Shown in pieces: positions 1 to 36,532 of a stretch of 64,000 nt of DNA. This DNA is from an uncultured Gammaproteobacteria bacterium (lineage in GTDB: Bacteria > Pseudomonadota > Gammaproteobacteria > Methylococcales > Methylomonadaceae). The stretch is taken from NCBI GenBank assembly GCA_963814825.1, contig CAWFEF010000004.1, positions 455,556 through 519,555 on the forward strand. The letters run 5' to 3'. The notes under the pieces are model-generated. The model made no database searches, was not told the DNA's origin, and worked only from the letters and a program-made list of their open reading frames with translations. The position numbers and the translations under genes are program-made. Position 1 is the first letter of the stretch. Every line of letters begins with the position of its first letter.

Positions 1-1482
1 TCAGCCTATAAATCCGAGAACCAATCGCTGTCGCTGGCTTTGCGCAAAGACGACCACCTTGCCGTGATCAAGGTCGGTCAGCAAAACATCCCTTATCAAG
101 CCTTTCCCAACGTGCGGATGGACATGACCGGGGATGACAGCTGGTTCGCCAATGTCTTCACCAAGAGCCAGTTCCAGTGGGGCAACCTGGAAACCCGCGC
201 TTATCACGAGGATGCCCGGCACAAAATGAACTTCCTTGAGGATAAAATGACCACGCCAACCCGCAACATGCCGATGGAGACACATGGCATTAACCAAGGC
301 CTGTCGGTAAAAGCCAATATTGATATTACCGACAAGCATTTGCTGACTGTTGGCAGTGAGTATCAGCGCTATCGTTTGGATGATTGGTGGGCTCCCGTTC
401 CGGGTAGCATGATGATGGGGCCGGGTACCTTTTGGAATATCGCTGCAGGAAAGCGCGACCGCATAGATCTGTTTACCGAATGGGAAGGCCGCTGGAGCCG
501 GCAATGGCTGACTCAACTCGGCGCCCGTGTCGGTGTTGTGGAAATGAATGCCGGCGACGTAAAAGACTATCAAAATGGCACTGTGGCACAAAGAGCAGAG
601 GCGACAGCCGTTAACAGCCAAAATAAAAAACAAACCGATGTGAATATCGATTGGACTGCGTTAGCGCGTTATACCTTTAATGACATGCAGACTTATGAAC
701 TGGGGGCTGCCAGAAAAACCCGTTCACCCAATCTTTACGAGCGCTTTGCCTGGTCTCGCGGAGCCATGGCGATGTTTATGAACAATTGGGTCGGCGATGG
801 CAATGGCTATGTCGGTGACATTAATCTTAAGCCGGAAGTCGCGCACACTGTCAGCGCGACAGCCAATTGGCATGACGCCAAGCAGGAAGACTGGGAAACC
901 AAAATCACGCCCTTTTACACCCACGTCGAGAACTATATTGATGCGAGACTCTGCCAGCCGGGCAATGGTGTGGCTTGCACCAGCCCGTCCGGCGGCTTTA
1001 ATTTTCTGCAACTGGCTAACTTCGATGCCCATCTGTTTGGCGTCGATGTTTCCGGGTCTAAGCGGATATTGGAAACCGTCAAATACGGCAACCTAACCGG
1101 GAAAACCGTCTTGAATTATGTCAGAGGGCAGAACAACGACACCGGCGGCAACCTGTACCAGCAGATGCCGTTCAATGCGACGGTAGCGCTGGAACATAAG
1201 CGCGGCGGCTGGTCCAACACCATCGAAACGCAACTGGTAGCGTCCAAAACCGACGTACAAGCCGTCCGGGTAGAACCTAAAACCGCAGGTTACGCACTGC
1301 TTAATTTACGCAGCAGTTATACCTGGAAGCATTTGCGCATCGATGGCGGCATAGACAACCTGCTGGATAAGAATTACGCCCTGCCGTTAGGCGGCACTTA
1401 TATAGGGGAAAGAAGCGTTACCGGAACGGCGGTTCCCGGAATGGGGCGCTCATTCAATGTCGGCATGACTGTGAATTACTAA
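1..1482 (+). CDS. TonB-dependent outer-membrane receptor, C-terminal beta-barrel portion (5' end lies outside the window)
   Basis: The frame is open from nt 1 and the 480+ aa product has beta-strand-rich TBDR-like sequence ending in an aromatic terminus (...NVGMTVNY). Paralogous receptor genes follow downstream. Confidence 0.75.
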   Translation, partial: SAYKSENQSLSLALRKDDHLAVIKVGQQNIPYQAFPNVRMDMTGDDSWFANVFTKSQFQWGNLETRAYHEDARHKMNFLEDKMTTPTRNMPMETHGINQGLSVKANIDITDKHLLTVGSEYQRYRLDDWWAPVPGSMMMGPGTFWNIAAGKRDRIDLFTEWEGRWSRQWLTQLGARVGVVEMNAGDVKDYQNGTVAQRAEATAVNSQNKKQTDVNIDWTALARYTFNDMQTYELGAARKTRSPNLYERFAWSRGAMAMFMNNWVGDGNGYVGDINLKPEVAHTVSATANWHDAKQEDWETKITPFYTHVENYIDARLCQPGNGVACTSPSGGFNFLQLANFDAHLFGVDVSGSKRILETVKYGNLTGKTVLNYVRGQNNDTGGNLYQQMPFNATVALEHKRGGWSNTIETQLVASKTDVQAVRVEPKTAGYALLNLRSSYTWKHLRIDGGIDNLLDKNYALPLGGTYIGERSVTGTAVPGMGRSFNVGMTVNY

Positions 1483-1655
1483 TCGCATGGCGTATGAATA
1501 ATTCGTACCTGGAATTATTTGCGTGCTCTGCAATGGACGATTGGCAGGTCGTCCATTGCGAAAAATGCATGAGTTATTTGTGTCCTTTCCAAAACCAAAG
1601 CTAAGGGGGTTTACGGCCCCGATTACGTTTTGTTAAACAGCGTTATTTAACACAC

Positions 1656-1683
1656 TTAAAGTGCGTCATATGGCGCACTTTAA
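1656..1683. promoter_or_regulatory. 28-bp near-perfect palindrome TTAAAGTGCGtCATATGgCGCACTTTAA, about 200 bp upstream of the second TonB-dependent receptor gene; candidate operator
   Basis: Read directly from the sequence: a 24/26 symmetric dyad lying in the promoter-proximal intergenic region. Confidence 0.3.
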
Positions 1684-1886
1684 ATCAGAAACATTCCCTG
1701 CAATAAAAGCGTAGAAGCCCGTTCAGGGCAAGCGCGGTCATTTAATAGAGCTTCCAAGTAATTGATTGCGAAAAATAAAAAGCCAAGTGCGGCGGGTCTG
1801 ATAAGTGGTGCCGCTGAGGCCTTGGTAACTTGGCATGCAATGTGCTCTTATACACAAACCACCCATCACTATTAAAAATTAAAACA

Positions 1887-4263
1887 ATGAAAAAATATCT
1901 ATTACTGCTGGGAGTAACTTATTTAGGCTGCGGAATTGCGGCCGAGCCGGTGACAGCGATTAAAAAGACAGAAACAGGCCAGACAAAAACCGATAAATAC
2001 CAGGGCGAGGATATGGTGACTTACGGGACTGCGACCGATAGAAAGTTTCCGGATACCGCCAAGGCAACGCCCACCTATACGATTGACGCGGCAGACGTCA
2101 AAACAAAAGTTAATGCGACAACGGTTGAGGATACTATCAGATATGCTCCAGGCGTATTGATCCGCAAACGTTTTATGGGTGATCCGAACGGCACCTTGGG
2201 CATACGCAGCTCAAATTCGTTTCAAACCGCACACAGCATGGTTTACGCCGACGGCATGCCATTGCACAATCCTTTGCGCACCACTTTCAACGGCGCGCCC
2301 AGATGGTCGATGGTGTCCCCCAGCGAAATCGATTCGGCGGAAGTGCTTTACGGGCCGTTCTCATCGCAATACAGCGGCAACTCGATGGGCGGCGTGATTA
2401 ACCTGAATACTAAAATGCCGGAAAAATTTGAAGCCCAAATGGACGCCACCGGCATGTTTCAGGATGTGCACCGGTCAGGGCGCAATGAAACTTTAATGGG
2501 CTATAAAACCTTTATTTCTGCAGGCGACCGGATTGATAAGTTCAGCGTTTGGGGCTCTTATAACCGTTTTGAAAACGAGGGGCAACCGCAGACCATCAAT
2601 GCCGCGGCTTTAACTACGGCAGCAGGCGGAACAGCCAGTCACCGGAGGAGAAGGTTACCAAACAACGACTGGAAGCTCCGGCGATTGCCTACGGTGACAT
2701 CGGCGTTGCCCAACAAACGACGGATTTGTTCAAAGCCAAATTCGCTTATGACTTTACCGAAGAGCTGCAAGGACGCTTTACCATTGCCTATGAAGATCGC
2801 GTAGGGAAAGTTGACGACCCGAACAGTTTATTAAGAGATGCGGCGGGCAACACGGTATGGGGCGGAGCCACTGCCGCAGGATTATCAGCCAGTCAAAACT
2901 ACAGAACAGCCGGCGGGCAGCGGTTTACCGTTCCCGGCTCGGTTTTCTCGGTCAGCGACTCGGAACGCCAGGCGTTAAACTATGGCTTGGGTTTAAAAGG
3001 CAAAATCTCGGATAACTGGAGTATCGATACGACCGCCAGTTATTACGATGCATTCAAGGACAGAACGATCAGTTCAAATCTTAATCCCAATCATCCGCTA
3101 AACCAAAACAAAGGCCAGGTTTCCGATGAAAAACCCTGGTGGGCAACTTACGACCTGAAGCTGGCGACCGACAAATTTATGGGCAGGGATGATTTGTCCT
3201 TTATGGGCGGCTATCAGTTTAACCATGCCAGCTTGAATCTGGATGTTTACAACAGCAATAATTACAAGGCCGGATCTGCCGATGTTAAAACCAACGACAG
3301 CGGCGGTGCAACTCAAACCAACAGCGCTTTTTCGCAGTTGGAATGGCGATTTTTGCCCGACTGGAGCGTAATGGCCGGGGGAAGGTTTGACCATTGGCAA
3401 GCCATTGACGGTCACGTTTATGACTATACAAATGCTACATCCTAATCTGAGAATACAAAACTACGCCGACCGCGATGCTTCCCGTATTTCGCCTAAAGCA
3501 TCGCTGGAATATTCGCCCGACAACTGGACTTTCCGCTATTCGTTTTCCAAGGCGTATCGTTTTCCGATTGCCGAAGAAATGTTCGCCAGCTTATCCAGAC
3601 TTAACAGCGCCACTTTTTCTGCTCCCGGATTAGGGCCTGAGGCAGGTTACTTTCATAACTTCATGACCCAGTACGATATTCCCAGAGGTTATGTGCGCGC
3701 CAATTTCTTTTTTGATCAAATCAACAATGAAATTAACAGTACCACGGTAACCGTTAACGGCCAGACGACAACAACCTTTCAGCCGATTGACCAAACCGAA
3801 GCTATCGGTGTGGATTTGACCTATCAACAGAACGAGGTGTTTAACCTGCCGGTCGATTTGATGGCTAATACCACCATAATGGACAAGCAGATTACCAAAC
3901 ATAACCCTATCGGGACTAACAGCGTCAACTACACCGGCAAAGAATGGGATCGCATACCCCAGTTGCAAATCAACGGCTCGGCAACTTATCATATCACGCA
4001 GCCATGGGCATGCTTCAGTGGGCGTTCGTTATCGCAGTGACTCGTTTCAAACGTTGGCCAACACCGACACGGCGGCCAATGTCATGGGTGGTACCGATGA
4101 ATCTACTTTTGTCGATTTAAAAACCTCTTATAAATTACCGATTAACCCAAAACTGAAAAGCACCATCTCAGCGGGGATCGATAACGTTTTTGATGCCAAT
4201 GCCTTTGAAAACCATCCTTATCCGCAACGCACCTATTTTATTAGCGCGTCGCTGAAATATTAA
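1887..4263 (+). pseudogene. TonB-dependent receptor (about 790 aa) disrupted by at least three frameshifts; ORF pieces are 1887-2804, 2726-3445, 3387-4040 and 4018-4263
   Basis: A signal peptide MKKYLLLLG is followed by a plug domain (DTIRYAPGVLIRKRF...PRWSMVSPSEIDSAEVLYGPFSSQYSGNSMGGVINL). The remaining barrel continues through three successive frames, and the end of the first ORF is obvious out-of-frame junk. Confidence 0.7.
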
Positions 4264-4325
4264 CCACAACGTGTAAAATAGTTTATTGATCAGCACAAGG
4301 ATGTGCGCCCTTCAAATGCACATCT

Positions 4326-4341
4326 TAATAATAATAATAAT
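4326..4341. repeat. (TAA)5 microsatellite, an AT-hexamer run resembling a Fur box, immediately upstream of the third receptor gene
   Basis: The sequence taataataataataat sits 15 bp before a GAGGA ribosome-binding site and the ATG at 4356. Confidence 0.3.
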
Positions 4342-4355
4342 TTTACGAGGACTCT

Positions 4356-6795
4356 ATGACACATTCCAAACCGCCTTATCCGCTTAATCCCGACGCGCTT
4401 TGATCTGCTTGCTGATACTAGCATCCCCGCTGGCCGTGGCTGAAACCAAGCAAAACGTTCAACCGGAAAAAAAGCGACCGCCGACAAATCCAAAGCGGTG
4501 ATGTCGGATATGACGGTAACCGAAAAAATAACGCCGACCGCCAAGGAAAGATACAAGCTGCCGACGACGACAGAGAGCGTTACCAGCGAAAAAATCGACA
4601 ACACCATCAATGCGATGACTGCCGAGGACACTATTAAATACCTGCCCAGCATTCAAGTGCGTAGACGTTATATCGGCGACACCAATGCGCCGGTGGGCTG
4701 GCGTACTTCGGGCACTGGCGCCAGCGCTCGCGGCTTGATTTATGCCGATGGCATTTTGCTGTCTTCGTTGCTGGGCAATAACAACGGCAACACCGGCTCG
4801 CCGCGCTGGAATATGGTGTCGCCTTCGGAAATTGAACGGGTTGATGTGATGTATGGACCATTTTCGGCGGCTTATTCAGGCAATTCGATCGGCGGCGTGA
4901 TTGACATCACTACGCGTATGCCGGAAAAATTTGAGGCCGGTGCCGATATAAAATCGACCTGGCAGGATTATGGCTTTCTATGGCAAGAAAAAGACCTTCG
5001 ACAGCCAGGAATATTCTTTCAATGTCGGTGATCGTTACAAAGACCTGTCATTTCGTTTTGATGTCAGCCATCTGGATAGTCATAGCCAGCCTATAGCTTT
5101 TGTGAATCCTATTGTTCCAACGGCCAACGCAACGGCTGCGGACACCGAGTAACGGGGGCCATTGCAAACACAAACCCGTACGGAGTTAGCGCTCAAGTGC
5201 TGGGCGAGTCTGCACTTAATCATACGGTGCAGGACAACTTCAAATGGAAATTGGGCTATGACTTCACCCCGACCATCCATGCGGCCTATACGCTGGGACT
5301 TTGGCAGAACGATGCTAATGCCGGTTTTAACAGTTTTTTACGTGATAGTGCCGGTAATGTAGTCAATAGCGGCAACGTTAATATTGGCGGAAAGCGCTAT
5401 GACCTTGCGCAGGTCTTCCTCTTTTCGCAGAAACCAGAGCCGAACAAATGCACTGGTCGCACGGCATGAACCTTAAATCCACCACCGGCGGCGTATTCGA
5501 TTGGGATTTGGCGGGCAGTGTGGTCGAATACGGCACGGATCTTAGCCGGACATCGACACAAACGCCGGCACAAGCCGCTGGAAATGGCGCAGGCAGAGTG
5601 ACCAGCTTGACCGGAACCGGCTGGCATACCGCCGATGCCAAGGGCATCTGGCGACCCGGCGTCGATCTGCTGGGCAAGCATGAAGTCAGCTTTGGTTTTC
5701 ACCACGATTTATATAATTTGGATAATCCGGTTTATACCGTTACCAACTGGCAAACCAGCGACGGCGGCAGCATTTTCTCCAATTCGCAAGGCAAGACCCA
5801 AACCGAAGGTTATTGGCTGCAGGATGCTTGGGACTTTAATAAAGACTGGAATTTGACCTTGGGTGGCCGCCTGGAAAACTGGCACGCTTTCGATGGCTAT
5901 AATGCAGGCTACAGTAGGCAGCACACTCAGAATCGACTCAATCAGGCGAAGCGCAATGATCTGGAGTTTTCGCCCAAGGCCAAGTTGACCTGGAAGCCTT
6001 TAGACCGTGTACAAACAGGTTTAGTCCATCGGCCAAGCCTATCGCTTTCCTACCGTGACGGAGTTGTTTCAAACGACGACGACGACTGTGGGCGGGATAA
6101 CGAATATTGTCAATGGCAATCCGAACCTAAAACCCGAAGAAGCGCTGTCTTCCGAACTTTCCGGACGAATATTTCCTGGATCAAGGCAAATTACGTCTTA
6201 GCTTATTCCAGGAACGCGTAAAAGATGCCATTTTTTCGCAGCAAACTCTTTTATCCACCGGGGCTATTTCCAGTACTCCTTCAAATGTCGGCGAAATTCA
6301 AACTTACGGCGTCGAAGTTGCAGGCGAAGCCAGTGATGTCGGCATACAAGGGTATTGACCTTTACGGTAATGCCACCTGGACCAATTCCGAAATTACCGA
6401 GAACGCGGCTTCAGATGCGGCGGCTGCCGCCGCAGGCGCTACTGCCGCTAACCCCAGACGCCAACCAGCCGTCAACCGGCAAACGCCAGCCCAGGGTTCC
6501 CGAGTGGCGCGCCAGTGCAACTATTGCCTATCGCCCAATCGACAAGTTGACGACCTCGGTAAGCGGCCGTTACAGCAGCGCGCAATTTAGCCAGTTGAAC
6601 AACAGCGATATCAATCCGGAGACTTATGGTGGAGGCGGCAACGCATACTTTATCGTCGATTTGAAAGCCAAATATCAAATCACCAAGCAGGTCAGCGCTT
6701 CGGCAGGTATTGATAACGTCAACAATCAGGAGGTCTGGTTATTTCACCCCTTCCCATCGCGTACTTACTTTGCTGAGTTGAAGTATAATTATTAA
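4356..6795 (+). pseudogene. TonB-dependent receptor paralog (about 810 aa) disrupted by at least five frameshifts, including one inside the signal peptide
   Basis: Its plug domain (AEDTIKYLPSIQVRRRYIGD...PRWNMVSPSEIERVDVMYGPFSAAYSGNSIGGVIDI) is about 55 % identical to the preceding gene. Barrel pieces lie at 4498-5031, 4970-5152, 5197-5469, 5448-6221 and 6355-6795, and the protein ends ...AELKYNY. Confidence 0.7.
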
Positions 6796-6820
6796 AGGCT
6801 TAATTAGAGCGACAAAAAAA

Positions 6821-6850
6821 GCCGGGCTTGTTTGAGAGCCCGGCTTTTTT
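6821..6850 (+). terminator. Rho-independent terminator
   Basis: The hairpin GCCGGGCTTgtttgagAGCCCGGC is followed by TTTTTT. Confidence 0.7.
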
Positions 6851-6921
6851 GAATATTTTTCTCTATTAGGCTTTGCCTTTCTCTTTATAATTCGGTTCGA
6901 CTCTTTAATTCGGTGTAATCA

Positions 6922-8184
6922 ATGAAATCCCTATCCTCTTTTCTATTTCTTGCAACGCTGGCCGTCTCCGGCTGCGCTAATGACACGACTGTACAAGCCC
7001 GCAGACGATGCTCAACAACATGCACATCATCACTCTGGCGATGCAAAAGGCGCTTGCGCCGATGCCAACGCGCGGCCCTCAAACCAATGCGCCGAAACGA
7101 TAAGTGCCGCTTTTGACGGCAAGGGCGTGTTATGGATTACCTGGGCGAACAATGACCATGTTTACGTGCAATCATCGGACGATAAAGGGCATAAGCTTTA
7201 CCGCGCCGGTGCAGGTCAATTCCGTTGCTGAAAAAATAGAAGCCAAAGGCGAATATCGCCCGAAAATAAAGCTGGATGCCAAAAGGGCAACTATTTATTT
7301 AACCTGGACGCAGAAGCTGGAAGGCAAACATAGCGGCCATATCCGCTTTAGCCGTTCGACTGACGGCGGACAGCATTTTTCCGCTCCGGTTACCGTCAAC
7401 GATAATCTGGATATCATCAGCCACCGCTTCGACAGCATGGCGATCGGCAAAAACGGCGAAATTTTTATTGCCTGGCTGGATGCCCGCGATTTTGAAGAAG
7501 CAAAAAAAGCCGGTCAAGAAATTTGAAGGTTCTTCGCTTTATTACAGCTGGTCGGACGATGGCGGCCAGCATTTTTATCCGAATAAAAGAATCGCCACCC
7601 ATACCTGCCAGTGCTGCCGTTTGGATACCGCGATAGCACCAGACAACACGCCGGTCGTCACTTGGCGGCATGTTTTCGAAGGCGGCATACGCGATCATGC
7701 GTTGGTTAAATTCAACGACTGGAATACCCCCGGCGATACCCACCGTGTCGGTCAGGACAACTGGAAAATCGATGCCTGTCCGCATCACGGCCCCGGTCTG
7801 TCGATTTCCGATTCCGGCATTTATCATGCGGTATGGTTTAGCGGCGCGCCCACCAACCCAGGTCTGTTTTATGCTTATTCGACCGATGCAGGACGGCATT
7901 TTTCAACGCCGGTTAACTTCGGCAAGGCCGGCACAGGCCATCCGCATGTGTTGGCTTTAGGTTCGCGGGTCAATGTGGTTTGGCAGGAGTTCGACGGCAC
8001 GAACAATCTTGTTAAATTGATGAAATCTGCCGACGACGGCAAAAGCTGGTCGAAGCCCGATGTGATTGCGCAGACCGCCCAGTCCGGTGATCAGCCTTTC
8101 CTGGTCAGCGACGGGCAGAAGATTTATCTCTCCTGGAAAGCGCAGCAGCAGGAATACGTTTTAAAATTGATTGATGACAACTGA
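6922..8184 (+). CDS. BNR/Asp-box repeat lipoprotein, split over three frames (6922-7116, 7104-7526, 7468-8184)
   Basis: It has a lipoprotein signal (MKSLSSFLFLATLAVSGC) and four Asp-box motifs (STDGGQHF, SDDGGQHF, STDAGRHF, SADDGKSW). Its two frame changes resemble those in neighbouring genes. Confidence 0.55.
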
Positions 8185-8224
8185 GCTCTGATCAGCAAAC
8201 TACTTCGGACAGCCTCAAAAAGCA

Positions 8225-8404
8225 CGTCATTCCGGCAGGGAAGCCGGAATCCAGGCACAGGGACGTGAGCCTATGGTCTGGCTTGCCGGTCTGCATGAAT
8301 ATATAGGTAAGGAGCGGAAGCTTCGAGTCTAAATCATGCACAACGGTATCGGTAAGTTACCATCCATGGCTCTGGATACCGGTATCCATGCCGGTATGAC
8401 GGTG
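8225..8404. repeat. MITE-like element, copy 1, with imperfect terminal inverted repeats CGTCATTCCGGCAGGG...CCATGCCGGTATGACG
   Basis: A second, shorter copy lies at 34724-34826 with the same ends and the same internal blocks (TGCCGGAATCCAG, GGTAAG, ATACCGG). Confidence 0.5.
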
Positions 8405-8489
8405 TTGGCTGAATCAGATGATAAATAATCGCCAAAGTACAAAGCGTGCTTTATGCTTACCCGTTTTAACGATATAAAAACTGACCTTT

Positions 8490-9146
8490 ATGGAAATTAT
8501 TTACTTTTTATTGCATTTGCTCAAAGACCCGCTGACGACGCTGCAAGATTTTCTGGCGCATTACGAGATGCTCACTTATGCAATTTTGGTTGCGATAATT
8601 TTTGTTGAAACGGGCCTAATCATCATGCCGCTGTTGCCCGGCGATTCGTTGCTGTTTGCGGTGGGGCTGTTGGCGTCATCGACCGGAAAGCTGGATATTC
8701 AAATCATCATTCCGTTGCTGATAAGCGCGGCTTTGCTGGGCGACAATGTCAATCACTTCGTCGGCAAGCATTTTAGTAAGTTCGTTAAATCGCGGGAACA
8801 AATTCTATTTTTTAAGCGGGAATACATCACCCAAACCGAAGAGTTCTACGACAAACACGGCGGCAAAGCCGTTATCATGGCCCGCTTCGTGCCGATCATC
8901 CGCACCATCGCTCCTTTCGTCGCCGGTGCGGGCAGCATGAAATACTCAAAATACATTATTTTTTGTATCATCGGCGCGACCTTATGGGTTACCAGCATCA
9001 CCTTAACCGGATATTTCTTAGGCTCGAATGAATGGGTCAAACACAATTTCGAGAAGATCGTTTTGGGTATTGTTTTCGTGTCGTTCATGCCGATGGTTTG
9101 GCAGTTTGCAAAAGTTAAATTGCTTAAACAGTCGCAGTCCATTTAG
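8490..9146 (+). CDS. DedA-family (VTT/SNARE-associated) inner-membrane protein
   Basis: The product contains the characteristic PLLPGDSLLFAVGLL and HGGKAVIMARFVPIIRTIAPFVAGAGSM motifs. Confidence 0.8.
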   Translation: MEIIYFLLHLLKDPLTTLQDFLAHYEMLTYAILVAIIFVETGLIIMPLLPGDSLLFAVGLLASSTGKLDIQIIIPLLISAALLGDNVNHFVGKHFSKFVKSREQILFFKREYITQTEEFYDKHGGKAVIMARFVPIIRTIAPFVAGAGSMKYSKYIIFCIIGATLWVTSITLTGYFLGSNEWVKHNFEKIVLGIVFVSFMPMVWQFAKVKLLKQSQSI

Positions 9147-11611: not shown

Positions 11612-13107
11612 ATGTCGCTTTGCTCAAAATATATTCCGATTATTCTTGTTCTCCTTTTTCCTTCCTTATCAATGGCGGCCGCTGAAGCAGGCCCTATTAG
11701 CCAAGTACAACCATTGGATTTGACTCAGCATTGGGCTGGTTATTTGGCTTTGACGGTTTTTGCTGTCGCCTACATTCTTGCCATGACCGAGGAAGTGACT
11801 GAGTTAAAAAAATCCAAGCCGATGGTGTTTGCGGCAAGCCTTATCTGGATATTTATTGCCGCTTTTTATACCAAGGCCGGGATGAGCGAACAAGCCGGAG
11901 TCGCTTTCCGCGCTACGCTTGAAAGTTATGGCGAACTGTTTTTGTTCATCATGGTCTCGATGACTTACTTAAATGCGATGGAAGACCGGGGCGTATTTGA
12001 CAGCCTGCGGGTCTGGCTATTGAGTAAGAATTTCAGCTATCGGCAATTATTCTGGATTACCGGCTTCCAGGCGTTCTTTATCTCGTCCGGCTGCAACAAT
12101 CTCACTACCGCCTTGCTGATGGGTTCGGTTATTCTGGCTATGGGTAAAGAATTGTCCTCGCTTTGTTACCTTATCCAGTATCAATGTTGTGGTAGCTTCT
12201 AATGCAGGCGGTTCATTCAGCCCCTTCGGCGACATCACCACGTTGCTGGTCTGGCAAAAAGGCGTCGTGCCGTTTGCCGACTTCTTTTCCCTGCTGATTC
12301 CGGCCATTGTCAACTTCGCAATACCTGCCGCGATCATGCATTTCTTTATTCCGCAAGAAAGACCGGCGGCGGTAATGGAAGCTCAAGCTATGAAGCGGGG
12401 CGGCTGGATAATCATCTTTTTGTTCGTATTGACCATTATTACGTCGGCTTGCTTTGAAAACTTCCTGAGCCTGCCGCCCGCTGCCGGGATGATGATGGGT
12501 TTGACCTATTTGAAGTTTTTCAGTTATTACCTGCAAAAAACCCGCGATTCCCACTCTGTATTAATTCCCGTGGATTTGACCGATACCAAAATCGATCATT
12601 TTGCGCCCGATGAAATACATGAACAATCCGCAAGCAGGGGGAAATCAACAAATGACCAAGGAACTGCCTTTTGATATTTTCCAGAAAGTCGCCAATCTTG
12701 AATGGGACACCTTACTGTTTTTTTACGGCGTAATGGTAGGTGTCGGAGGTTTGAGTTTCATCGGCTATATGGAAGTGGCATCCCACCATCTTTACGGCAG
12801 CATCGAGCCTACAGTCGCCAACATTCTGGTGGGCATCGCCTCTGCGTTTGTGGATAATGGCACCATTATGTTGTCTGTACTGACTATGGCTCCTGATATT
12901 TCTCAAGGCCAGTGGTTGCTGGTCACATTGACCGCCGGTGTTGGCGGCAGCATGTTGGCGGTCGGTTCCGCAGCAGGCGTCGGCTTAATGGGACAAGCTA
13001 AAGGAATTTACACTTTCACCAGTCATCTGAAATGGACGCCGGTCATCGCGTTGGGTTACTTCGGCAGTATCGCCGTTCACTTTCTTATCAATGGTCGGTA
13101 TTTTTAG
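11612..13107 (+). CDS. nhaD: NhaD-type Na+/H+ antiporter (about 498 aa), interrupted by two frameshifts; pieces at 11612-12202, 12189-12674 and 12601-13107
   Basis: The product is a polytopic membrane protein with recognisable NhaD/ArsB-superfamily sequence in all three pieces, and the gene follows an AAGGA ribosome-binding site. Confidence 0.6.
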
Positions 13108-15163: not shown

Positions 15164-15679
15164 TTAAATCGCTACTGCGTTCAAATTCTCGTCTTCATAC
15201 AAACGTAGTTTCTTCCAGCCGGTGAATTTGCTGTCATAAAATTCAAGGTCATTATCAATTGAATGCTCATAGCAGCTTCTGAACAGCTTGGCGGTGCGAA
15301 ATGCATGCAACTCGTCATCTGCCGTTACTTTATCGACATTGCCGACCTGAAAGGTTTTATTCCTGGATTTGCCGTTACTGACCCAAAAAACGGTATAGCA
15401 AAGATAGCTTTTATCTTTACGATGATCATACTTGATGGTTCTGGATACGCCTGTGACGCCTGTGGTGGTTTTGTTTTTGGGCGGCTTAAGGAACCGTGTC
15501 TTGCTGCCTTTTAAAACGGTCAGCATTTGGTCGCGCCAAGTAATGGCGGCTTTCAGGGACTTGCCTTTGTTGCCCCACAATTTATGTGAAAAATAACGAC
15601 TGCTTTCTTTGCCGCGTCTTACGATGCGGACTTGGTAGCCGAACACATCGGGCTCGGTAATATGTTTGTCTTTTGCCAT
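15164..15679 (-). CDS. Hypothetical DNA-binding protein with two AP2/ERF-like domains
   Basis: Two AP2-like blocks are present (GYQVRIVRRGKESSRYFSHKLWG and GVTGVSRTIKYDHRKDKSYLCYTVFWVSNGKSRNKTFQVGNVDKVTADDELHAFRTAK). The gene sits in an AT-rich islet between kup and ahpC. Confidence 0.45.
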   Translation of the reverse strand: MAKDKHITEPDVFGYQVRIVRRGKESSRYFSHKLWGNKGKSLKAAITWRDQMLTVLKGSKTRFLKPPKNKTTTGVTGVSRTIKYDHRKDKSYLCYTVFWVSNGKSRNKTFQVGNVDKVTADDELHAFRTAKLFRSCYEHSIDNDLEFYDSKFTGWKKLRLYEDENLNAVAI

Positions 15680-25553: not shown

Positions 25554-27572
25554 CTAAAGCAAAGGCACAATCAACAGCGCAACCGTATTGACTACTTTGA
25601 TAATGGTATTGATAGCGGGTCCTGCCGTGTCCTTGTAAGGATCGCCTACCGTGTCGCCGGTGATTGCGGCCTTATGTGCCGCAGAACCTTTGCCGCCGTA
25701 ATGGCCTGCTTCAATATATTTCTTGGCGTTATCCCAGGCGCCGCCGCCTGTGGTCATCGAAATGGCGATGAACAGGCCGGAGATAATAGAACCTATCAAC
25801 ACTCCACCCAAGGCGGTTTTGCCCAGCGTGAACCCGACGATGACCGGGATGAAAACCGGCAGCAGCGACGGAACCACCATTTTCCTGATCGCGGAAATCG
25901 TCAAAATATCGATAGCCTTTGCATAGTCCGGTTTAGCGGTGTAAGTCATAATGCCGGGAATCTCCTTAAACTGGCGGCGGACTTCATTAACAATATCGCC
26001 GGCGGCCTCGCCTACCGCTTCCATTGCAAATGCGCTGGACAGGTAGGGAATCAGCGCACCGAGCAACAGGCCGATAACGACCCGAATATCGGATAGATCA
26101 CAAACCAGTCCGCCCAGGTTGCTGGTGTAATCGGAAAAAAGCGCGAGTGCAGCCAGCCCGGCCGCCCCCATTGCAAAACTTTTTGTGACTGCCTTGGTAG
26201 TGTTGCCTACGGCATCGAGAGGGTCGGTGATCTTGCGGATGCCTTCCGGCATTTTTGCCATTTCCGCTATGCCGCCAGCATTGTCGGTAATCGGGCCATA
26301 AGCATCGATAGCGACGATCATCCCGGTTAATGACAGCATACCGGTTGCGGCTACGCCGATGCCAAATAGTCCAGCCAATTGGTGGGTTGCCCACATAGCG
26401 GCACAAATCAAAATAACTGGTGCGGCGGTGGATTTCAAGGACAAACTTAATCCGGCAATAACATTAGTACCGTCACCTGCGGTCGATGCTTTGGCGATTT
26501 TCTGAACCGGCGCATAGGCGCTGGAGGTGTGATATTCGGTAATCAGCATTAAGGCGATCATCAGGCCCAAACCGATAGCGGCCGAATAAAACAGATGGAG
26601 CGAGGGAATGAGCCTGCCGCCGATTATTAGCGCATCGCCCATCAGTAGGCGGGTGGCCGGATAAAACAGCAATAACGACAGCACCGTGGCAATAATAACG
26701 CCTCTGTATAAGGCCAACATGACGTTTCCATTCTCGGCCACCCTGACGAAGAAAATGCTGATCATGGAGATAAGGATCGATATGCCGCCCAGAACCAGAG
26801 GATAGGCAATGGCATTTTCATTACCGTCGATGATCAGCAGATCGGCCAGCAACATAGTGGCGATCAGGGTTACCGCATAGGATTCAAACAGGTCAGCTGC
26901 CATGCCTGCGCAATCGCCGACGTTATCGCCGACGTTATCCGCGATAACGGCCGGATTTCTCGGGTCATCTTCAGGGATGCCCGCCTCGATTTTACCGACC
27001 AGATCAGCTCCCACGTCGGCGCCTTTGGTAAAGATGCCTCCGCCGAGGCGGGCAAACATGGCGATTAACGATGCGCCGAAAGCCACGCCGAGCATGGCAT
27101 ACAAAGGCTGGTTTACGTCCAGCCACAGTAAAACGCTGTAGTAGCCGCCCGCTGCCAACAGGCCCAGGCCCACCACGGACATGCCGGTAATGGAGCCGCC
27201 TCTGATCGCAATCAGAAAAGCATGATGGGAGCCTGAATAAGCCGCTTGAGCGGTGCGGACATTGGCGCGGACCGAGCTGTGCATGCCGACAAAACCGGCT
27301 AGCGCCGAGCACAGCGCGCCTAAGGCAAAACCACCGGCGGTAGTCCAGTTTAATAAGAAGCCGACCAGCAATAACAGCGCAGTACCCGCCCAAGCTATAA
27401 CTTTGTACTGTCTGGTCAGATAAGCCTCGGCTCCCTGCTGGATAGCCAGAGCGATAGCCTGCATTTGTTCATTGCCTGACGGCTGTTGTTTAATCCACTT
27501 GAGTAATATCAGACTATATAAAATGGCGGCGATAGCGGTAAGTAGCGCAAAAAGCAAGCACCATTGCGCCAT
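25554..27572 (-). CDS. hppA: Membrane-bound proton- or sodium-translocating pyrophosphatase
   Basis: The roughly 670-aa polytopic product carries the diagnostic pyrophosphatase motifs [56 protein letters not shown] and [20 protein letters not shown]. Confidence 0.85.
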
Positions 27573-27957
27573 GGATAGCGTGGTGTAAGAGGTAATAAAC
27601 ATAGTCGCTCCTTAGTCGTAAGATGGGCTAAACACCAACAGTAGGCGTTTTAGGCAGCATGCCGCCCATCAATCGGGAACGATGAGCAGGTAATGCCTTT
27701 TCAACGATATTTTTATTATTCCATTAGCGACGAACAATAATTGATTGTTATCGGTCAAGCAACAATTAAAAAGGATAAGAGATGCGAGTGCAATCCCAGC
27801 AAAAACCTAGTAAAATGGCCGACATATGTCGCTTTAAAACAGCGGCTGCCAACAGCGGTTTATCTGATGTCCTGAAAAAAACAAACCGGGTATTTGGGTT
27901 TGAATTTTTAAAAACGCAGTTAATCGGCTTAATTCGAAAGTTTATTTGAGGTATTAG

Positions 27958-29697
27958 CGTGGAGCTAAACGGCGCACAAATTGTAATTCAGAGTCTCAAG
28001 GACGAAGGCGTAGAATATATTTTTGGCTATCCCGGCGGGGCGGTGTTGCATTTATACGATGCCATTTATCCAGCAGGATGATGTCAAGCACATCCTGGTT
28101 CGGCATGAACAGGGCGCCACGCATGCTGCGGATGGCTATGCCCGTGCGACTGGTAAGCCGGGCGTAGTTCTGGTCACTTCGGGACCGGGCGCTACCAATG
28201 CAGTCACCGGCATCGCCACCGCTTATATGGATTCAATCCCGATGGTGGTTATTTCCGGCCAAGTACCGTTGCCGGTCATCGGTAGCGATGCGTTCCAGGA
28301 AGTCGACATGGTCGGCATTACCCGTCCCTGCGTGAAGCATAACTTTTCTGGTTAAAGACATAACCAAACTGGCCGAGACCATCAAAAAAGCGTTTTATGT
28401 CGCTACCACCGGCCGTCCCGGCCCTGTTGTTGTGGATATACCCAAAGATATAACTGATCCCAGAATAAAAGTACCTTATAAATACCCTAAAAAAGTCACC
28501 ATCCGTTCTTATAATCCTGCGGTTACCGGGCATAAAGGGCAGATTAAAAAAGCCGTGGATTTATTATTGACCGCGCAAAAGCCGATCATTTATTCCGGCG
28601 GCGGCGTGGTTTTGGGTGAAGCCAGCCAGGAACTGACCGAATTCGCTCAATTGCTGGACTTTCCGGTTACCAATACCTTGATGGGTTTGGGCGCTTATCC
28701 TGCAACCGACAAGCAGTTCGTCGGCATGCTCGGGATGCACGGCACTTATGAAGCCAACATGGCGATGCATGACAGCGATGTGATTATTGCGATCGGCGCG
28801 CGTTTTGATGACCGCGTCACCGGCAAGCTGGACGAGTTTTGCCCGCATGCGCAAATCATCCATATCGATGTGGATCCTGCGTCTATTTCCAAGACTGTTA
28901 AAGTCGCGATCCCTATCGTCGGCGAAGTCAAACCGGTATTGGAGCAAATGATGGAAATGATCAGGGAAAGCAAAAAGAAACCGTCCAAGAAAGCGTTGGA
29001 AAACTGGTGGAAGCAGATCGACCAATGGCGGGCCGTCAAATGTATGGAATATGACCGCAACAGCCGCTTGATCAAACCGCAATACGTGATTGAACAGTTG
29101 TACGAAGTCACCAAAGGCGAGGCGTATATCACCTCGGATGTCGGTCAGCATCAAATGTGGGCGGCCCAGTATTATCCGTTCGACAAGCCGCGGCATTGGA
29201 TTAATTCCGGCGGTTTGGGCACGATGGGCTTTGGCTTGCCTGCGGCTATCGGCGTTAAACTGGCGTTTCCCGATTCCGAAGTCGCCTGCGTGACCGGCGA
29301 CGGCAGCATCCAGATGTGCATTCAGGAATTATCGACCGCGCTGCAATACAATGCGCCGGTAAAAATCATCAACCTGAACAACAGCTATTTGGGCATGGTT
29401 CGCCAATGGCAGGAATTTACCTACGAAAGTCGTTACTCGCATTCGTACATGGACACCATCCCGGACTTCGTCAAGCTGGCTGAGGCCTATGGCCATGTCG
29501 GCATGCGTATCGATAAGCCCGAAGAAGTCAGACCGGCGCTGGAAGAAGCGTTTGCGATGAAAGACCGCACGGTATTCTTGGACATCCTGACCGACCGAAC
29601 CGAAAATGTTTACCCGATGATTGAAGCGGGCAAAGCCCATAACGACATGACCTTAAGAGTTGCGGAAGGCACATCAACCGACAGGGAATTGGCGTAA
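27958..29697 (+). CDS. ilvB: Acetolactate synthase large subunit (about 580 aa) carrying two frameshifts, near 28078 and near 28345
   Basis: The sequence [35 protein letters not shown], then [56 protein letters not shown], and the rest of the ThDP/FAD enzyme lie in three different frames. The first shift is consistent with an extra C in TATCCAGCAG. Confidence 0.75.
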
Positions 29698-30189
29698 TGA
29701 GACATATTATTTCTATCCTGATTGAAAACGAATCCGGTGCGTTATCGCGGGTGGCAGGCTTGTTTTCCGCGCGCGGCTACAATATCGAGTCGTTGACCGT
29801 TGCGCCGACTGAAGACCCTAGCCTGTCGAGAATGACCCTGGTCACTCGCGGCAGCGACGACATTATCGAGCAAATCACCAAGCAGCTGAATAAACTGATT
29901 GATGTGGTCAAGCTGATAGACTTGGCCGAATCCGATCATATTGAACGGGAACTGATGATGGTCAAGGTCAAGACCACCGAACAGATCGCGCGAAGAAATC
30001 AGAGGCATGGCGGATATATTTCGCGGCAAGATTATCGATGTGACGCCGACCACTTATGTCGTGGAAATGACCGGCCCCTCCAGCAAACTGGATGCGTTTA
30101 TCGCCGCTATCGATGGCGATACCATTATTGAAGTCGTTCGCTCCGGGCCGACAGGCATTTCAAGAGGCGAAAAAGGGCTGCATTTGTAA
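29697..30189 (+). CDS. ilvH: Acetolactate synthase small (ACT-domain) subunit carrying one frameshift near 29990
   Basis: The N-terminus reads [35 protein letters not shown]. Removing one A from CGAAGAAATC restores ...[17 protein letters not shown].... Confidence 0.75.
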
Positions 30190-30298: not shown

Positions 30299-31336
<1,038 letters not shown>

Positions 31337-31354
31337 TCTAAATTGGTTTAAGTG

Positions 31355-31392
31355 TTTAAAAAAGCCCGTCTTTATGACGGGCTTTTTTTGCT
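31355..31392 (+). terminator. Rho-independent terminator; an almost identical module recurs at 38495-38532
   Basis: The hairpin AAAAGCCCGTCtttatGACGGGCTTTTTTT is preceded by GTTTAAGTGTTTAAA. Confidence 0.7.
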
Positions 31393-31421
31393 ATGCCCGC
31401 AATGCACGAAGTCTCGGAAAG

Positions 31422-32582
31422 CTACTTGCACCGCTCAGTCAAACGCACCATGTCATTCATCACGCCATCCAAGCCGCCGTAAACGTTCAGCGTATTGATA
31501 CGGCCGGTGATTTTTTCCAATATCTCCAACTCTTTCAAGCGCAATAACACGGGGTTGCCTTCCATGACTTTGGCGGTGTTATGCAAAGACCGCGTTGCTT
31601 GGGTTTCTTCCTGACGCTTAATTAAATTCGCTTCGGCAAGTTTTTGCGCCTCAACCACTTGGGTCAGAATCGCTTTCATTTCACCGGGCAAGACAATATC
31701 TCGCGCTCCGACGGTTTTTACTTCAATGCCGTAAACAGCTGCTTTTTCGGCAATGATCGTTAACACCTGTGTGTTCAATGAGTTTTTATCGGCTAACAAC
31801 TCATCCAACGTTTGCGTGCTGACAACCGTCCGCAACGCCAATTGCAATTCGCGGTACAAATAATCCTTGGCATCGGCCAGCTCGGCTTTAACCACTTCAG
31901 CTTGTTTAATCTGCCAGGTTGACGACAAATTCACCCGCAAACTCACGCGGTCTTTGGTCAAAATTTCCTGACCGTTGACTTCCATGTTTTGCAAACGGCC
32001 ATCGAATAACGTCACGGCGATATTGCGATTAAACCGCCACCAAACATGCGTTCCTGACGTTAATGTTGCGACCGTTTCCCCGTCCACCATCAAGAATCCC
32101 AAATGATTTTCCGGCACTGTCGCTACGACTATCGCTCTCAAAGCGGCACACCGCAACATGTCGTCTTTGGCATTCGCCAACAACGCCGCCAATTTTTTGG
32201 GTACGGTAAAGTCCTGGCTGATGTCCAGCTTATCTATATGTATCTCTTGCTGAGTTTTCCAATAAGCGCCGCGTTGTCCGGGGGCTTTAATGTCTTTTAG
32301 AACATTTTTTTGATAAACCAGGCCGACTTCCTGCTCGCCGGTTTCCCATTGCGTCATCACCTCGGCAAACGCATCCGGATGTAATTGCGCCAAGTGCAGC
32401 AGGTCTTTATCAATCTCTTCCTGCAAAGTGTTGGTCAGCGTGACTACCTGAACTTGGTATTGATCGAACCAATCCCAAAATCTATAGACACCGGCGGGCA
32501 AAATTTTTAGAAATTGCCGCTCTTTAAACAACAAACCTTTTTGCGTTTCCGCGATTATTATTTTTTTGATTAAACGCATTGC
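31422..32582 (-). CDS. SPFH/band-7 domain protein (stomatin- or flotillin-like)
   Basis: A central SPFH-like region (TKDRVSLRVNLSSTWQIK...VGARDIVLPGEMKAILTQVVEAQKLAEANLIKRQEE) is present. The start is taken as MRLIKKIIIAE. Confidence 0.6.
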   Translation of the reverse strand, partial: AMRLIKKIIIAETQKGLLFKERQFLKILPAGVYRFWDWFDQYQVQVVTLTNTLQEEIDKDLLHLAQLHPDAFAEVMTQWETGEQEVGLVYQKNVLKDIKAPGQRGAYWKTQQEIHIDKLDISQDFTVPKKLAALLANAKDDMLRCAALRAIVVATVPENHLGFLMVDGETVATLTSGTHVWWRFNRNIAVTLFDGRLQNMEVNGQEILTKDRVSLRVNLSSTWQIKQAEVVKAELADAKDYLYRELQLALRTVVSTQTLDELLADKNSLNTQVLTIIAEKAAVYGIEVKTVGARDIVLPGEMKAILTQVVEAQKLAEANLIKRQEETQATRSLHNTAKVMEGNPVLLRLKELEILEKITGRINTLNVYGGLDGVMNDMVRLTERCK

Positions 32583-32838
32583 TGTCTCCTTAAAATAAAG
32601 TGATAAAGCCTCCGCACAGCCACCGGCTCCAAGCCTTATGGCGAGCGGGCAAACCCTCGCTTGCTGTTTGCGCACCCGTCAGACCCAGCCCAAAGGCGGT
32701 GTTTGTGCTGATGTCCGGTGACCGTGACGTGACGCCAGATAAACCGCATCTGACTACACGCAACCGCCGCCTTCAATCGGGAGGCCCTATCTGATGCCCT
32801 TTCGGGCTTTGCTTTTTCAAGCTACCTTGGAAGGGTAG

Positions 32839-32911
32839 TTTCACTAGCCGGATTCGAACCGGCTACAGCCTGATTACAAATCAGTTGCTCTACCTGGATG
32901 AGCTATAGTGA
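32839..32911 (-). tRNA. tRNA, probably Thr (anticodon TGT read from the loop TTTGTAA)
   Basis: The minus-strand cloverleaf shows a D-arm GCTC...GAGC and a T-arm GCCGG-TTCGAAT-CCGGC with a 7-bp acceptor stem. Pairs 1-72 and 27-43 are non-Watson-Crick. Confidence 0.5.
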
Positions 32912-32987
32912 TGGAGCTGCCAGTTGGATTCGAACCAACGACCTACCGAGTATTCTCGGTAGCTCTACCTGACTGAGCTATGGCAGC
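32912..32987 (-). tRNA. tRNA-like gene with encoded CCA and an anomalous 6-nt anticodon loop; isotype undetermined
   Basis: The acceptor stem GCTGCCA/TGGCAGC, the D-arm and the T-arm (GTTGG-TTCGAAT-CCAAC) are canonical. The anticodon arm is ACCGA-GAATAC-TCGGT, which may reflect an indel error or a pseudo-tRNA. Confidence 0.4.
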
Positions 32988-33176
32988 GTTATTTGACACC
33001 GTCTCAACACCGATACGCAGATGCCTATCAGGTTTGCGTCAGTCAGGCGTTTTGAACCTGAACCGCTGGTGTTGTTGGTATGTCAAATTCTTGCTGGCGT
33101 TACCTATGCTTTGCGGCAACGCCGAATATATTTATCCTAGAAATCAGTTGGAACATATGAAATCCGTTCGTACTGA

Positions 33177-33275
33177 GCCCTCTCCAGAGGGGAGAGGGTT
33201 GGGTGAGGGGAATCAAAATAAGGAAAAGGCTTATTTAAATCCCCTCATCCCAACCTTCTCCCTGAGGGAGAAGGA
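33177..33275. repeat. Composite palindromic element, family 5: CTCTCCAGAGGGGAGAGGGTTGGGTGAGGGGA ... TCCCCTCATCCCAACCTTCTCCCTGAGGGAGAAGGA
   Basis: The two arms are nearly reverse-complementary, and a single-arm copy lies at 38435-38474. Confidence 0.5.
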
Positions 33276-33353
33276 GCTCGCAATCTAAACCCTACCCCTT
33301 CGATAGGCTCAGAGCGAACGGGATTTTGGTGTGCTCAACTGCATGTTTTAGAT

Positions 33354-34578
33354 TTATCCCTTAACACAAACCACCTGTTTCAAGGTATGCACAATCTCAA
33401 CCAAATCCGCCTGCGCTGCCATCACCGCTTCAATAGGCTTGTAGGCGGAAGGCGTTTCGTCGATCACCTCTTCATCCTTACGGCATTCCACGCCTGCCGT
33501 GGCTTGAATATGCTCGGCCAAGGACACCAGCTTTTTCGCTTGGGTGCGCGACATAACCCGCCCTGCGCCGTGGCTGCAACTGCAAAAACTTTCTTCGTTG
33601 CCCAAACCGCGCACAATGAAGGATTTGGCGCCCATGCTGCCGGGAATAATCCCCATTTCACCCAGCTTGGCGCTGACCGCGCCTTTCCGGGTAACCAGCA
33701 CGTTTTTATCGTAATGATGCTCACGGCTGATATAGTTGTGATGACAGTTAACCGCTTCCAGCTCTGCGCTAAACGGTACCGGCAACATGTCCCGTATCGC
33801 GCTTAACACGTTGTTCATCATGATTACCCGGTTGGCAAGCGCAAAATCCTGCGCCCAGCTCACCGCTTCCAGATAGTTTTTAAAATGCTCGCTGCCTTCG
33901 GGAATGTAGGCCAAATCTTTATCGGGCAGATGGATAAACCAGCGTTCCATATCTTTTTTAGCCAGCTCGATAAAGTGCGTCCCGATCCGGTTGCCGACAC
34001 CGCGCGAACCGCTATGCAACATCACCCAAACTGCATCCGCCTCATCCAGGCAAATCTCGATAAAATGATTGCCTGTTCCTAACGTACCCAAATGGTTGAG
34101 GTTGTTGGTGTTTTTCAAGCACGGATGTTTTTGGCATAACCGTTCAAAGCCCTCATTTAACAGCAGCCAAGCCTGCACAACGTCTTCAGGCGGTTGGCCC
34201 CAGCTACCGGTATCGCGCACTTTAAAATTGGCAACGCGGCCATGCGGCACGCGTTTTTCAATCTCGTTGCGTAACGCGGTCAACGAATCGGGCAGTTGCG
34301 CGGCGGTTAAAGCTGGTTTTAGTCGCCATCATGCCGCAGCCCAAATCCACACCCACCGCAGCCGGAATCACCGCGCCGACGGTAGGAATGACGCTGCCGA
34401 TCGTCGCGCCTTTACCCAGATGGACATCGGGCATTACCGCGATCCATTTGTGAATAAACGGCAGCCCGGCGATATTCAGCAATTGTTGCTTGGAGTTTTC
34501 ATCAAAGCTTACGCCGCGTGTCCATGCCTTAACAGGATAGTGACCTTGTTCGTGTAAGACTTCGTAGGAGCTAGTCAT
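33354..34578 (-). CDS. rtcB: RNA-splicing ligase RtcB (408 aa) carrying one frameshift near 34270
   Basis: The motifs GMMATKTSF...HKWIAVMPDVHLGKGATIGSV...HSGSRGVGN...NCHHNY and the metal-binding histidines are present across two frames. Confidence 0.8.
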
Positions 34579-34620
34579 GATTGAGATTCCTTGAGTTTGT
34601 TTACTAACGATTTGTTTAGA

Positions 34621-34635
34621 GCAAGGCCTGTGCCA
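34621..34635 (-). promoter_or_regulatory. Sigma-54 promoter (-24 TGGCAC, N5, -12 TTGC) driving rtcB
   Basis: The plus strand reads GCAAGGCCTGTGCCA, which is TGGCACaggccTTGC on the minus strand, about 45 nt upstream of the rtcB start. It is divergent from the sigma-54 activator gene rtcR. Confidence 0.6.
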
Positions 34636-34723
34636 AATAGCATGTAATCGGCTGCGCCATCTTTAACCATGAGTTCCAAACACCTATCATTTTTAATGGG
34701 AATGCCCCAAAAACGTCATTCCG

Positions 34724-34826
34724 GCAGGGATTGCCGGAATCCAGAAGCCAGGGATGGTAAGGCTCAGATCACCTCCATGTGCCCTAGATACCGGCAGTCC
34801 ATGCCGGTATGACGTGCTATTTAAAC
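34724..34826. repeat. MITE-like element, copy 2 (internally shortened), lying in the rtcB-rtcR intergenic region
   Basis: It has the same terminal inverted repeats and internal blocks as the copy at 8225-8404. Confidence 0.5.
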
Positions 34827-34940
34827 AAAGTAATTACATGCGCTGTTGAACTTAAATTGCTCAGCTAGAGTAGATTTGCATCGCCCAAGAGGCTAAACTC
34901 CAGGTTAACTTTTTATCGATATAGATACCGGATTATCAAA

Positions 34941-36532
34941 ATGGATACAGTCATCATCGGCATTTTAGGATCTCGCCTGGATCACGGCGGTTTGGGTAGC
35001 AGACGGCACGAACGCTGGCGGCCCAGCATCTCGTTATTGATGCACGATAACCTGCCAGTCGATGAGTTTGTGTTGATCCATCATGCCGATGAACAACAAC
35101 TCGCCACCTTGACGCTCAACGATATGGCGGCCATGTCTCCGCAAATACGGCTGACACCTTATCAAGTCGATTATGAAAACCCTTGGGACTTTGAACAGGT
35201 TTATAGCCAGCTGCACGAATTCACCCGCAGCTATCATTTCGATCCCGAACAGCATGATTATTATGTCCACATCACCACCGGCACCCATGTCGCGCAAATC
35301 TGTTTGTATCTGCTGACCGAAGCCAACTACATTCCGGCCAAGTTGCTGCAAACCTCGCCAAGCAAGGAAGGCGTGCAAGGTTGCTATCAAGTCATCGATT
35401 TGGATTTATCGCGCTACGATCAAATCGCCTCGCGCTTTGCCCGTGAAGCCCAAGACGGCATTGCTTATTTAAAAGGCGGCATAACAACGCATAATCCTGC
35501 GTTTAATACATTGATCTCCCAACTGGAGCATGTATCGATCAAATCGTCGGCGCCGATGTTGTTAACAGGCCCGACAGGCGCCGGAAAATCGCGGCTGGCA
35601 AAACGCATTTACGAACTGAAAAAACAGCGCGGCTTGGTGACCGGCAAATTGGTGGAAGTCAATTGCGCGATCTTGCGCGGCGATAACGCGATGTCGGCTT
35701 TATTCGGCCATGTGCGAGGCGCTTATACCGGCGCTTTGACTCAGCGCATGGGCTTATTGCGCGAAGCCGATAAAGGCTTGCTGTTTTTAGATGAAATCGG
35801 CGAATTGGGCCTCGACGAACAAGCCATGCTGCTGCGTGCGATTGAAGATAAAGTGTTTATGCCATTGGGCAGCGATCAGGAAGTCGGCAGCGATTTTCAA
35901 TTGATAGTCGGAACTAACCGCGATTTGTTCGAACAAGTACAACGGGGGTTGTTTCGTGAAGATTTGTTGGCGCGGATTAATTTATGGACCTATCAACTGC
36001 CCTCGCTGAAACAACGCATCGAAGATTTAGAGCCCAATATTGAACACGAGCTGCAACAATTTACGATTAAAGCAGGCTATAAAGTCAGCTTTAACAAAGC
36101 CGCTCGCGAACAGTATTTAAAGTTTGCCCGTTCAGCAACAGGCGCTATGGCGAGCGAATTTCCGGGATTTAAATTCCAGCATTACCCGCATGGCAACCTT
36201 GGCAACGGGCGGGCGCATTACCGAAGAACTGGTGGGCGAAGAAATCAGCCGCTTGCAGTACGCTTGGTCAGGTTTCAGCCAGCAAGCCGGTTGACGATGG
36301 ACTTGCCGCCGTATTGTCGGCGCAAGCCTTGGCGGAGTTGGATTTATTCGACCGTTTGCAACTTGCCGAAGTAGTGCGCGTCTGCCGCGCCAGTCGCAGC
36401 TTGGCCGAGGCGGGACGGGTTTTGTTCAATCATAGCCGCACCCAAAAAGCCAGCGCCAATGACTCGCACCGGCTTAAGCAATATTTACAGAAGTTTGGCT
36501 TGGAGTTTCAGGGGATTGTAAAAAGCTCGTAA
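34941..36532 (+). CDS. rtcR: Sigma-54-dependent transcriptional activator RtcR (CARF-like N-terminus plus AAA+ domain) with a frameshift near 36320
   Basis: The AAA+ sigma-54 activation domain carries TGPTGAGKS and LLFLDEIGELGLDEQAMLLRAIEDKVFMPLGSD. The C-terminal HTH piece lies in the next frame. Confidence 0.8.

Follow-up and report, generated by a model that had tools for sequence, protein, structure and literature searches.

A 64,000-nucleotide stretch of contig CAWFEF010000004.1, from an uncultured Methylobacter (the window), carries 31 firm frame-breaking insertions and deletions (indels) and 3 uncertain ones, 34 in all, between positions 2,634 and 36,286. They interrupt 12 genes, which encode two TonB-dependent receptors (receptors 2 and 3), a BNR-repeat lipoprotein, the transporters NhaD and Kup, a conserved lipoprotein, Hsp33 (hslO), MsrA, the acetolactate synthase subunits IlvB and IlvH, and RtcB and RtcR. 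We put the probability at about 0.9 that these frame breaks are consensus errors of a strain-collapsed long-read metagenome assembly and not mutations of the organism. A preliminary description of this DNA, made from the sequence alone, had reported at least 20 frame changes in precisely the same 12 genes and had favored assembly or sequencing error over pseudogenization; the number of firm events exceeds that minimum, and the preference for error is borne out by the intact orthologs, the lack of stop codons, the unchanged selection, and the strong bias toward insertions that are described below.

The window is Methylobacter DNA, with a nucleotide identity of about 88–90% to Methylobacter tundripaludum SV96 and 84–90% over the colinear stretches. 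Two stretches of SV96 scaffold JH109152.1 (L081 and L090) are colinear with window positions 2531–8156, 8417–31399, and 46447–48765, and the longest ilvB fragment has 97% protein identity to M. tundripaludum and to many proteins from Methylobacter metagenome-assembled genomes. The contig from which the window was taken is 609,687 bp long, is deposited without annotation at NCBI and in the European Nucleotide Archive (ENA), and carries exact copies of the window's intact proteins. That a contig of an uncultured Methylobacter is this long suggests that it was assembled from long metagenome reads; the sequencing platform is likewise an inference. Frame changes were called with a dynamic program that permits frame shifts, by which orthologous proteins were aligned to the window DNA, and every event was cross-checked in nucleotide multiple alignments. 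The references were the SV96 isolate and metagenome contigs from the Joint Genome Institute (JGI; L092–L153), which comprise 57 metagenome loci retrieved with the frame-corrected receptor 3 protein and further loci that contain Band7, rtcB, and rtcR. No near-identical genome was found; a protein 100% identical to the DedA of the window (P0121) occurs only on 4-kb contigs with approximately 90% DNA identity.

The SV96 genome and dozens of JGI metagenome contigs provide full-length copies of all 12 genes. Whether relatives keep these genes intact had been raised in the preliminary description, and every isolate or short-read-metagenome relative does. Among the relatives, the symptom is confined to L089 (ERZ25039513 contig_68115) and L149 (ERZ25039462 contig_87773); both are ENA contigs named in the style of Flye, and they are fragmented at other positions. 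When the frames of the broken genes are corrected, there are zero in-frame stops in 5,385 codons, and the corrected amino acid identity is 89–97%. The ratio of nonsynonymous to synonymous substitution rates (dN/dS), pooled across comparisons with orthologs, is 0.082 for the broken genes and 0.076 for their intact neighbors. The spectrum of events consists of approximately 28 single-base insertions, 2 two-base insertions, and 2 single-base deletions, so insertions outnumber deletions by ~30:2, whereas the in-frame indels that occur naturally in these genes run in both directions. Individual genes hold up to 4 events (msrA) or 8–11 events (receptor 3), and beyond each of them the coding sequence remains conserved. 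Nonsense codons, large deletions, and insertion sequence (IS) insertions were all absent from the 12 genes.

In deep alignments, the window often has two bases where its relatives have one variable base. At position 4010, the window reads G[C][A]T and the relatives read GCT or GAT; at 7191, the window reads GGG[C][A]TA and the relatives have CTA, ATA, GTA, or TTA; at 4974, the window reads GG[C][T]TT and the relatives have either C or T. The inserted base was an allele of the adjacent polymorphic column at 12/12 sites for which at least 13 clean references were available. Random bases placed at random in the corrected genes and taken through the same pipeline gave a match in 42% of cases (p = 3e-5). 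Both single-base deletions, at 4391 and 5148, likewise fall on polymorphic columns. In ilvB, T[A]TC at 28068 was predicted to combine TTC (F) with TAC (Y), and this F/Y prediction was confirmed: residue 37 is F in 111/113 homologs and Y in 2/113, and the flanking residues 33–35 and 38–39 are invariant. Two of the insertions, those at 4010 and 7191, are found again at the corresponding positions of L089, an independent contig, and 18–28 clean references lack them (for 7191, the insertion in L089 is identical and the number of clean references is 28). This is compatible with errors that are provoked where the sequence varies repeatedly. The match between the inserted base and the alternative allele of the neighboring column suggests that both alleles of a single-nucleotide polymorphism (SNP) were kept when strains were collapsed.

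In the mechanism that we consider most likely, reads of at least two co-occurring, closely related strains would have been piled onto one contig, and a graph- or neural-network-based consensus step would have resolved the mismatch between them as an insertion. Both SNP alleles would have been emitted side by side, producing a +1 insertion. On this view, a second haplotype would have been collapsed onto the contig in the affected patches, and the read pile would have been homogeneous in the clean parts, including the right 27 kb; strain collapse may in this way account for the errors and also for where the patches begin and end. Flye collapses strains that are 98.65% identical into a consensus, and indels are among the principal sources of the frameshifts found in assemblies of this kind (PMC8302730). 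Large soil and sediment projects have deposited Nanopore-only assemblies at scale, made with Flye and one round of Medaka, from samples with substantial microdiversity (PMC12313526). Frameshift errors are more frequent in soil assemblies from Oxford Nanopore Technologies (ONT) reads (PMC13087279) and at coverage below ~40x (PMC9262707). The window resembles the products of strain-oblivious assembly, such as those of metaFlye when it collapses strains that are ~98–99% identical (PMC8302730), in that patchy errors are tied to variable positions and the inserted base equals the alternative allele; it differs in that the collapse is deduced here rather than seen.

The frame breaks are distributed unevenly along the window. 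In the right 27 kb, zero frame breaks were detected. The open reading frames (ORFs) of this clean control region (36600–64000) span their Pfam models end to end, cstA has no frameshift relative to SV96, and the CheB-CheR, GGDEF-EAL, and P450 proteins are equal in length to their cluster relatives; the earlier statement that the long genes to the right are intact is upheld on these grounds. The region encodes MgtC, P450, TauE, a 651-amino-acid ORF, VapBC, ParE, CstA, FBA, CheB-CheR, GGDEF-EAL, a methyltransferase, HAD, SDR, an FeS-assembly protein, PilZ, and OEP/MFP/AcrB. If events were uniform across coding sequence, the probability that all 34 would be on the left side is 9e-9. Events are also uneven among the genes of the left part (by-gene chi-square p = 0.002), where 17 genes or gene fragments are clean compared with 10.6 expected (p = 0.0004) and the longest clean coding stretch measures 7.3 kb (p = 0.0045). 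The clean set consists of a receptor fragment at 1–1482 and 16 other genes, namely those for DedA, TonB, ExbB, ExbD, a 171-amino-acid protein, AhpC, a histidine kinase, a response regulator, DUF2797, H+-translocating pyrophosphatase (H+-PPase), and Band7, together with lpxD, moaC, moaD, moaE, and ilvC. The affected zone ends at 36.3 kb, inside a block that is missing from SV96; therefore, its boundary is not a synteny breakpoint. In moaC (- strand), an extra 2 nt at 23265, four codons before the end of the gene, alters the C terminus and gives an ORF of 166 amino acids compared with 160 in SV96. This event, judged against a single reference, could be natural or a further error and was left outside the count.

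Several points weigh against strain collapse as the source of the frame breaks. We infer the errors and the second haplotype indirectly, from the consensus and its alignments. The doubled-allele test was applied to only 12 of ~30 sites, and at several sites with a shallow reference panel (12150, 14767, 17071, and 36137), the inserted base was not among the sampled alleles. The same test gave 8/14 for L089's own insertions, which is not different from the 42% null. Reference clades were searched as a proxy for the second strain, and none consistently carries the inserted alleles. The error zone stops at 36.3 kb without a visible reason in the sequence. Finally, no publication was found that describes this exact SNP-to-insertion artifact, with both alleles emitted, in a metagenome consensus; the literature supports the ingredients of the mechanism but not the exact signature.

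Because of these weak points in the signature, plain low-coverage noise stays a minor rival, in which the frame breaks would be random residual indels of a thin or unpolished stretch and the patches would be local dips in coverage. L089 shows noise of this kind, with 26 single-base insertions and 18 deletions in ~16 kb; frameshifts have been linked to low coverage in the literature (PMC9262707 and PMC12313526), and the shallow-panel sites that lack an allele match are also compatible with it. However, such noise should produce insertions and deletions together, as in L089, and not the lopsided ratio of the window; it predicts that ~42% of insertions would fall on allele positions, whereas the observed figure was 12/12; and exact recurrence of two sites in L089 would not be expected from it (by a rough estimate, ~0.1 coincidences). 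We consider this explanation unlikely. A systematic platform error at homopolymers or methylation motifs is clearly less probable again. In older assemblies from ONT, 454, and Ion Torrent reads, no other cause of frameshifts is as common (PMC9262707), and the reappearance of two of the sites in L089 would be in keeping with errors of this type. Among 30 inserted bases, the run length is 1 in 23, 2 in 5, and 3 in 2, with none in a run of at least 4, and inserted bases are less homopolymer-associated than a random base of the same genes. These figures contradict the homopolymer error that had been proposed in the preliminary description. Its two worked examples were within ~10 nt of true sites, but in each the wrong base was named. 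In ilvH, GAAGAAATC (29992) is found unchanged in SV96, and the extra base, a T, lies ~6 nt upstream at 29986; in ilvB, the CC of TATCCAGCAG is conserved in SV96 and the extra base is not a C but the A of TTT[A]TCC (28068). CCGG and GGGC had been noticed near some sites; all 4-mers within 8 nt of the sites were tested, none was enriched after correction for 125 tests (best p = 0.0055), and a methylation or sequence motif was rejected. The window shares several features with the indel-truncated ORFs of long-read assemblies that are the subject of IDEEL-type tests: conserved genes are split into adjacent ORFs that lie in different frames, relatives are intact, and the effect is limited to error-prone long-read assemblies, with L089 and L149 showing the same symptom. 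The classical description of such ORFs is homopolymer-centered and deletion-biased, whereas the errors in the window are almost all insertions and lie outside homopolymers and at polymorphic sites.

The least probable group of explanations is that the mutations are real. Very recent pseudogenization in a Methylobacter lineage, through genome decay or a mutator burst, would account for the frameshifts as they stand in the deposited sequence, and the region does hold toxin-antitoxin genes and small repeats. The accumulation of pseudogenes in host-restricted or niche-shifted bacteria is similar in that many conserved genes of one region are frameshifted. It differs in that the window has no stops, deletions, or relaxed selection, single genes have several insertions, genes for essential biosynthesis are hit, and the sharp boundary between clean and affected sequence follows no biological unit. 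Bacterial pseudogenes are deletion-biased, which is opposite to the bias in the window, and a methanotroph needs ilvB and ilvH to grow on minimal media. Had genes been nonfunctional for the time needed to gather 4 (msrA) or at least 8 (receptor 3) independent indels, they should also show nonsense codons and relaxed constraint; neither is present, and the reading frame is conserved after each event. Genuine decay is very unlikely because the relatives are intact, there are no stops, dN/dS is unchanged, and the spectrum is biased toward insertions. The same evidence contradicts decay in a host-restricted lineage, which had been kept as a fallback in the preliminary description, and the genus is a free-living methanotroph. 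Scarcely any probability attaches to a real, very recent, insertion-biased burst at polymorphic or recombination-prone sites of one population, in which 12 genes, ilvB and ilvH among them, were knocked out before any other decay; if it were true, the organism would be auxotrophic and would depend on its neighbors. Programmed ribosomal frameshifting was also considered and rejected, given that the orthologs have no shift and that up to 4–11 shifts per gene occur in unrelated contexts.

The affected genes begin with receptor 2 (1887–4263, + strand), which has four single-base insertions, at 2634/2635, 2670/2671, ~3438–3443, and 4010. Its orthologs are ~815 amino acids long, and the corrected protein has ~94–95% amino acid identity to those of SV96, L092, L093, and L099 with zero internal stops. 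Compared with 14–18 clean references, the insertions are specific to the window, except for the one at 4010 shared with L089. Receptor 3 (4356–6795, + strand; orthologs 807–810 amino acids) has eight firm frame changes, which are -1 at 4391, +2 at 4460, +1 at 4974, -1 at 5148, and +1 at 6024, 6166, 6348, and 6457. The three uncertain changes are also in this gene, at 5404 (+14 compared with most references) and 5906/5932 (net +3). The corrected receptor 3 protein was matched at all 57 metagenome loci that encode relatives, and the full-length matches listed span residues 1–808. The gene for the BNR-repeat lipoprotein (6922–8184, + strand; orthologs 416–419 amino acids) has three single-base insertions, at 6994–6998, 7184–7191, and 7514.

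Single-base insertions also account for the breaks in the next genes. The nhaD-type Na+/H+ antiporter gene (11612–13107, + strand; 497 amino acids in SV96) has insertions at 12150 and 12606 and is intact in L137, which has 94.7% nucleotide identity. The potassium transporter gene kup (13185–15072, + strand; 628 amino acids in SV96), the gene for the conserved 261-amino-acid lipoprotein (16666–17452, - strand), and hslO (17464–18337, - strand; 289 amino acids in SV96) have one insertion each, at 14767, 17071, and 18037, respectively. Four insertions lie within 316 bp of msrA (18424–19057, + strand), at 18523, 18621, 18685, and 18838; the SV96 protein has 209 amino acids, of which the corrected sequence matches 186/209 with zero stops. 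The large subunit of acetolactate synthase, ilvB/ilvI (27959–29697, + strand; 578 amino acids), has insertions at 28068 (A) and 28343 (C). Of 120 listed homologs, 113 are exactly 578 amino acids long and all but one (473 amino acids) are full length, with the top matches ~97% identical. The small subunit gene, ilvH (29697–30189, + strand; 163 amino acids), has one insertion at ~29986. The RNA ligase gene rtcB (33354–34643, - strand; 428 amino acids in L150) has insertions at 34309 and 34583, and the adjacent gene for the sigma-54 activator, rtcR (34941–36532, + strand; 530–543 amino acids in relatives), has a +1 change at 36137 and a change at 36286 that is +1 relative to L150 but -2 relative to L149.

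The contigs L089 and L149 come from related Methylobacter and are heavily frameshifted. In L089, the genes for DAHP synthase, ExbB, NhaD, Kup, AhpC, and Hsp33 are split, and this contig looks like mixed random noise. Gene fragments from both contigs are already present in the public protein collection.

Several differences in gene content were seen between the window and its relatives. An ABC-transporter cluster, consisting of an ATPase and two ABC-2 permeases, is located between the BNR gene and the DedA gene in SV96 (L090 6248–9904) and in several JGI relatives and is missing from the corresponding position of the window (8185–8490). Between kup and the peroxiredoxin gene, the window encodes the 171-amino-acid protein (15164–15679, - strand), which is identical to its SV96 counterpart at 164/171 positions and has a sub-threshold AP2-domain hit as its sole Pfam match. 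The H+-PPase gene (25554–27602, - strand), located between DUF2797 and ilvB, is intact, encodes 682 amino acids, and has full Pfam coverage. It is missing at this position in SV96, and its best match is 64% identical among the matches listed from a one-genome-per-species collection; the gene may have been acquired horizontally.

A 15-kb block at 31400–46450 separates ilvC from cstA, which are neighbors in SV96, where the block is absent. It contains Band7, rtcB, rtcR, MgtC/DUF4010, P450, TauE, the 651-amino-acid ORF, which has no Pfam match, VapBC, and ParE. In the JGI contig L150, the Band7-rtcB-rtcR trio is in a different neighborhood; therefore, 31400–46450 is a variable, island-like region. 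The spacer between rtcB and rtcR contains a 166-bp insertion (34664–34829) that is absent from L149, L150, and L152. It has short palindromes, CATTCCGGCAGGGATTGCCGGAATC and ATACCGGCAGTCCATGCCGGTAT, and resembles a miniature inverted-repeat transposable element (MITE) or a repetitive extragenic palindromic (REP) element in appearance. Two small families of intergenic repeats, 45–112 bp long and 83–92% identical, were also found, with copies at 41013–41093, 42005–42116, and 42199–42310 and at 31346–31393, 38488–38537, and 33233–33277 (inverted). A remark on MITE-like elements in the preliminary description is consistent with these two families.

The broken frames are almost certainly an artifact of assembly and not a biological feature. 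An extra base that matches the alternative allele of an adjacent site would allow strain-collapse errors to be recognized from an alignment of relatives, without the reads, which may be mildly useful. The case also serves as a warning about data quality: gene calls from the 610-kb contig and from comparable public long-read metagenome contigs, L089 and L149 among them, feed fragments of conserved proteins into databases, and such gene calls would inflate pseudogene counts and predictions of auxotrophy. For this Methylobacter, the transporters, stress proteins, ilvBH, and rtcBR are best regarded as intact.

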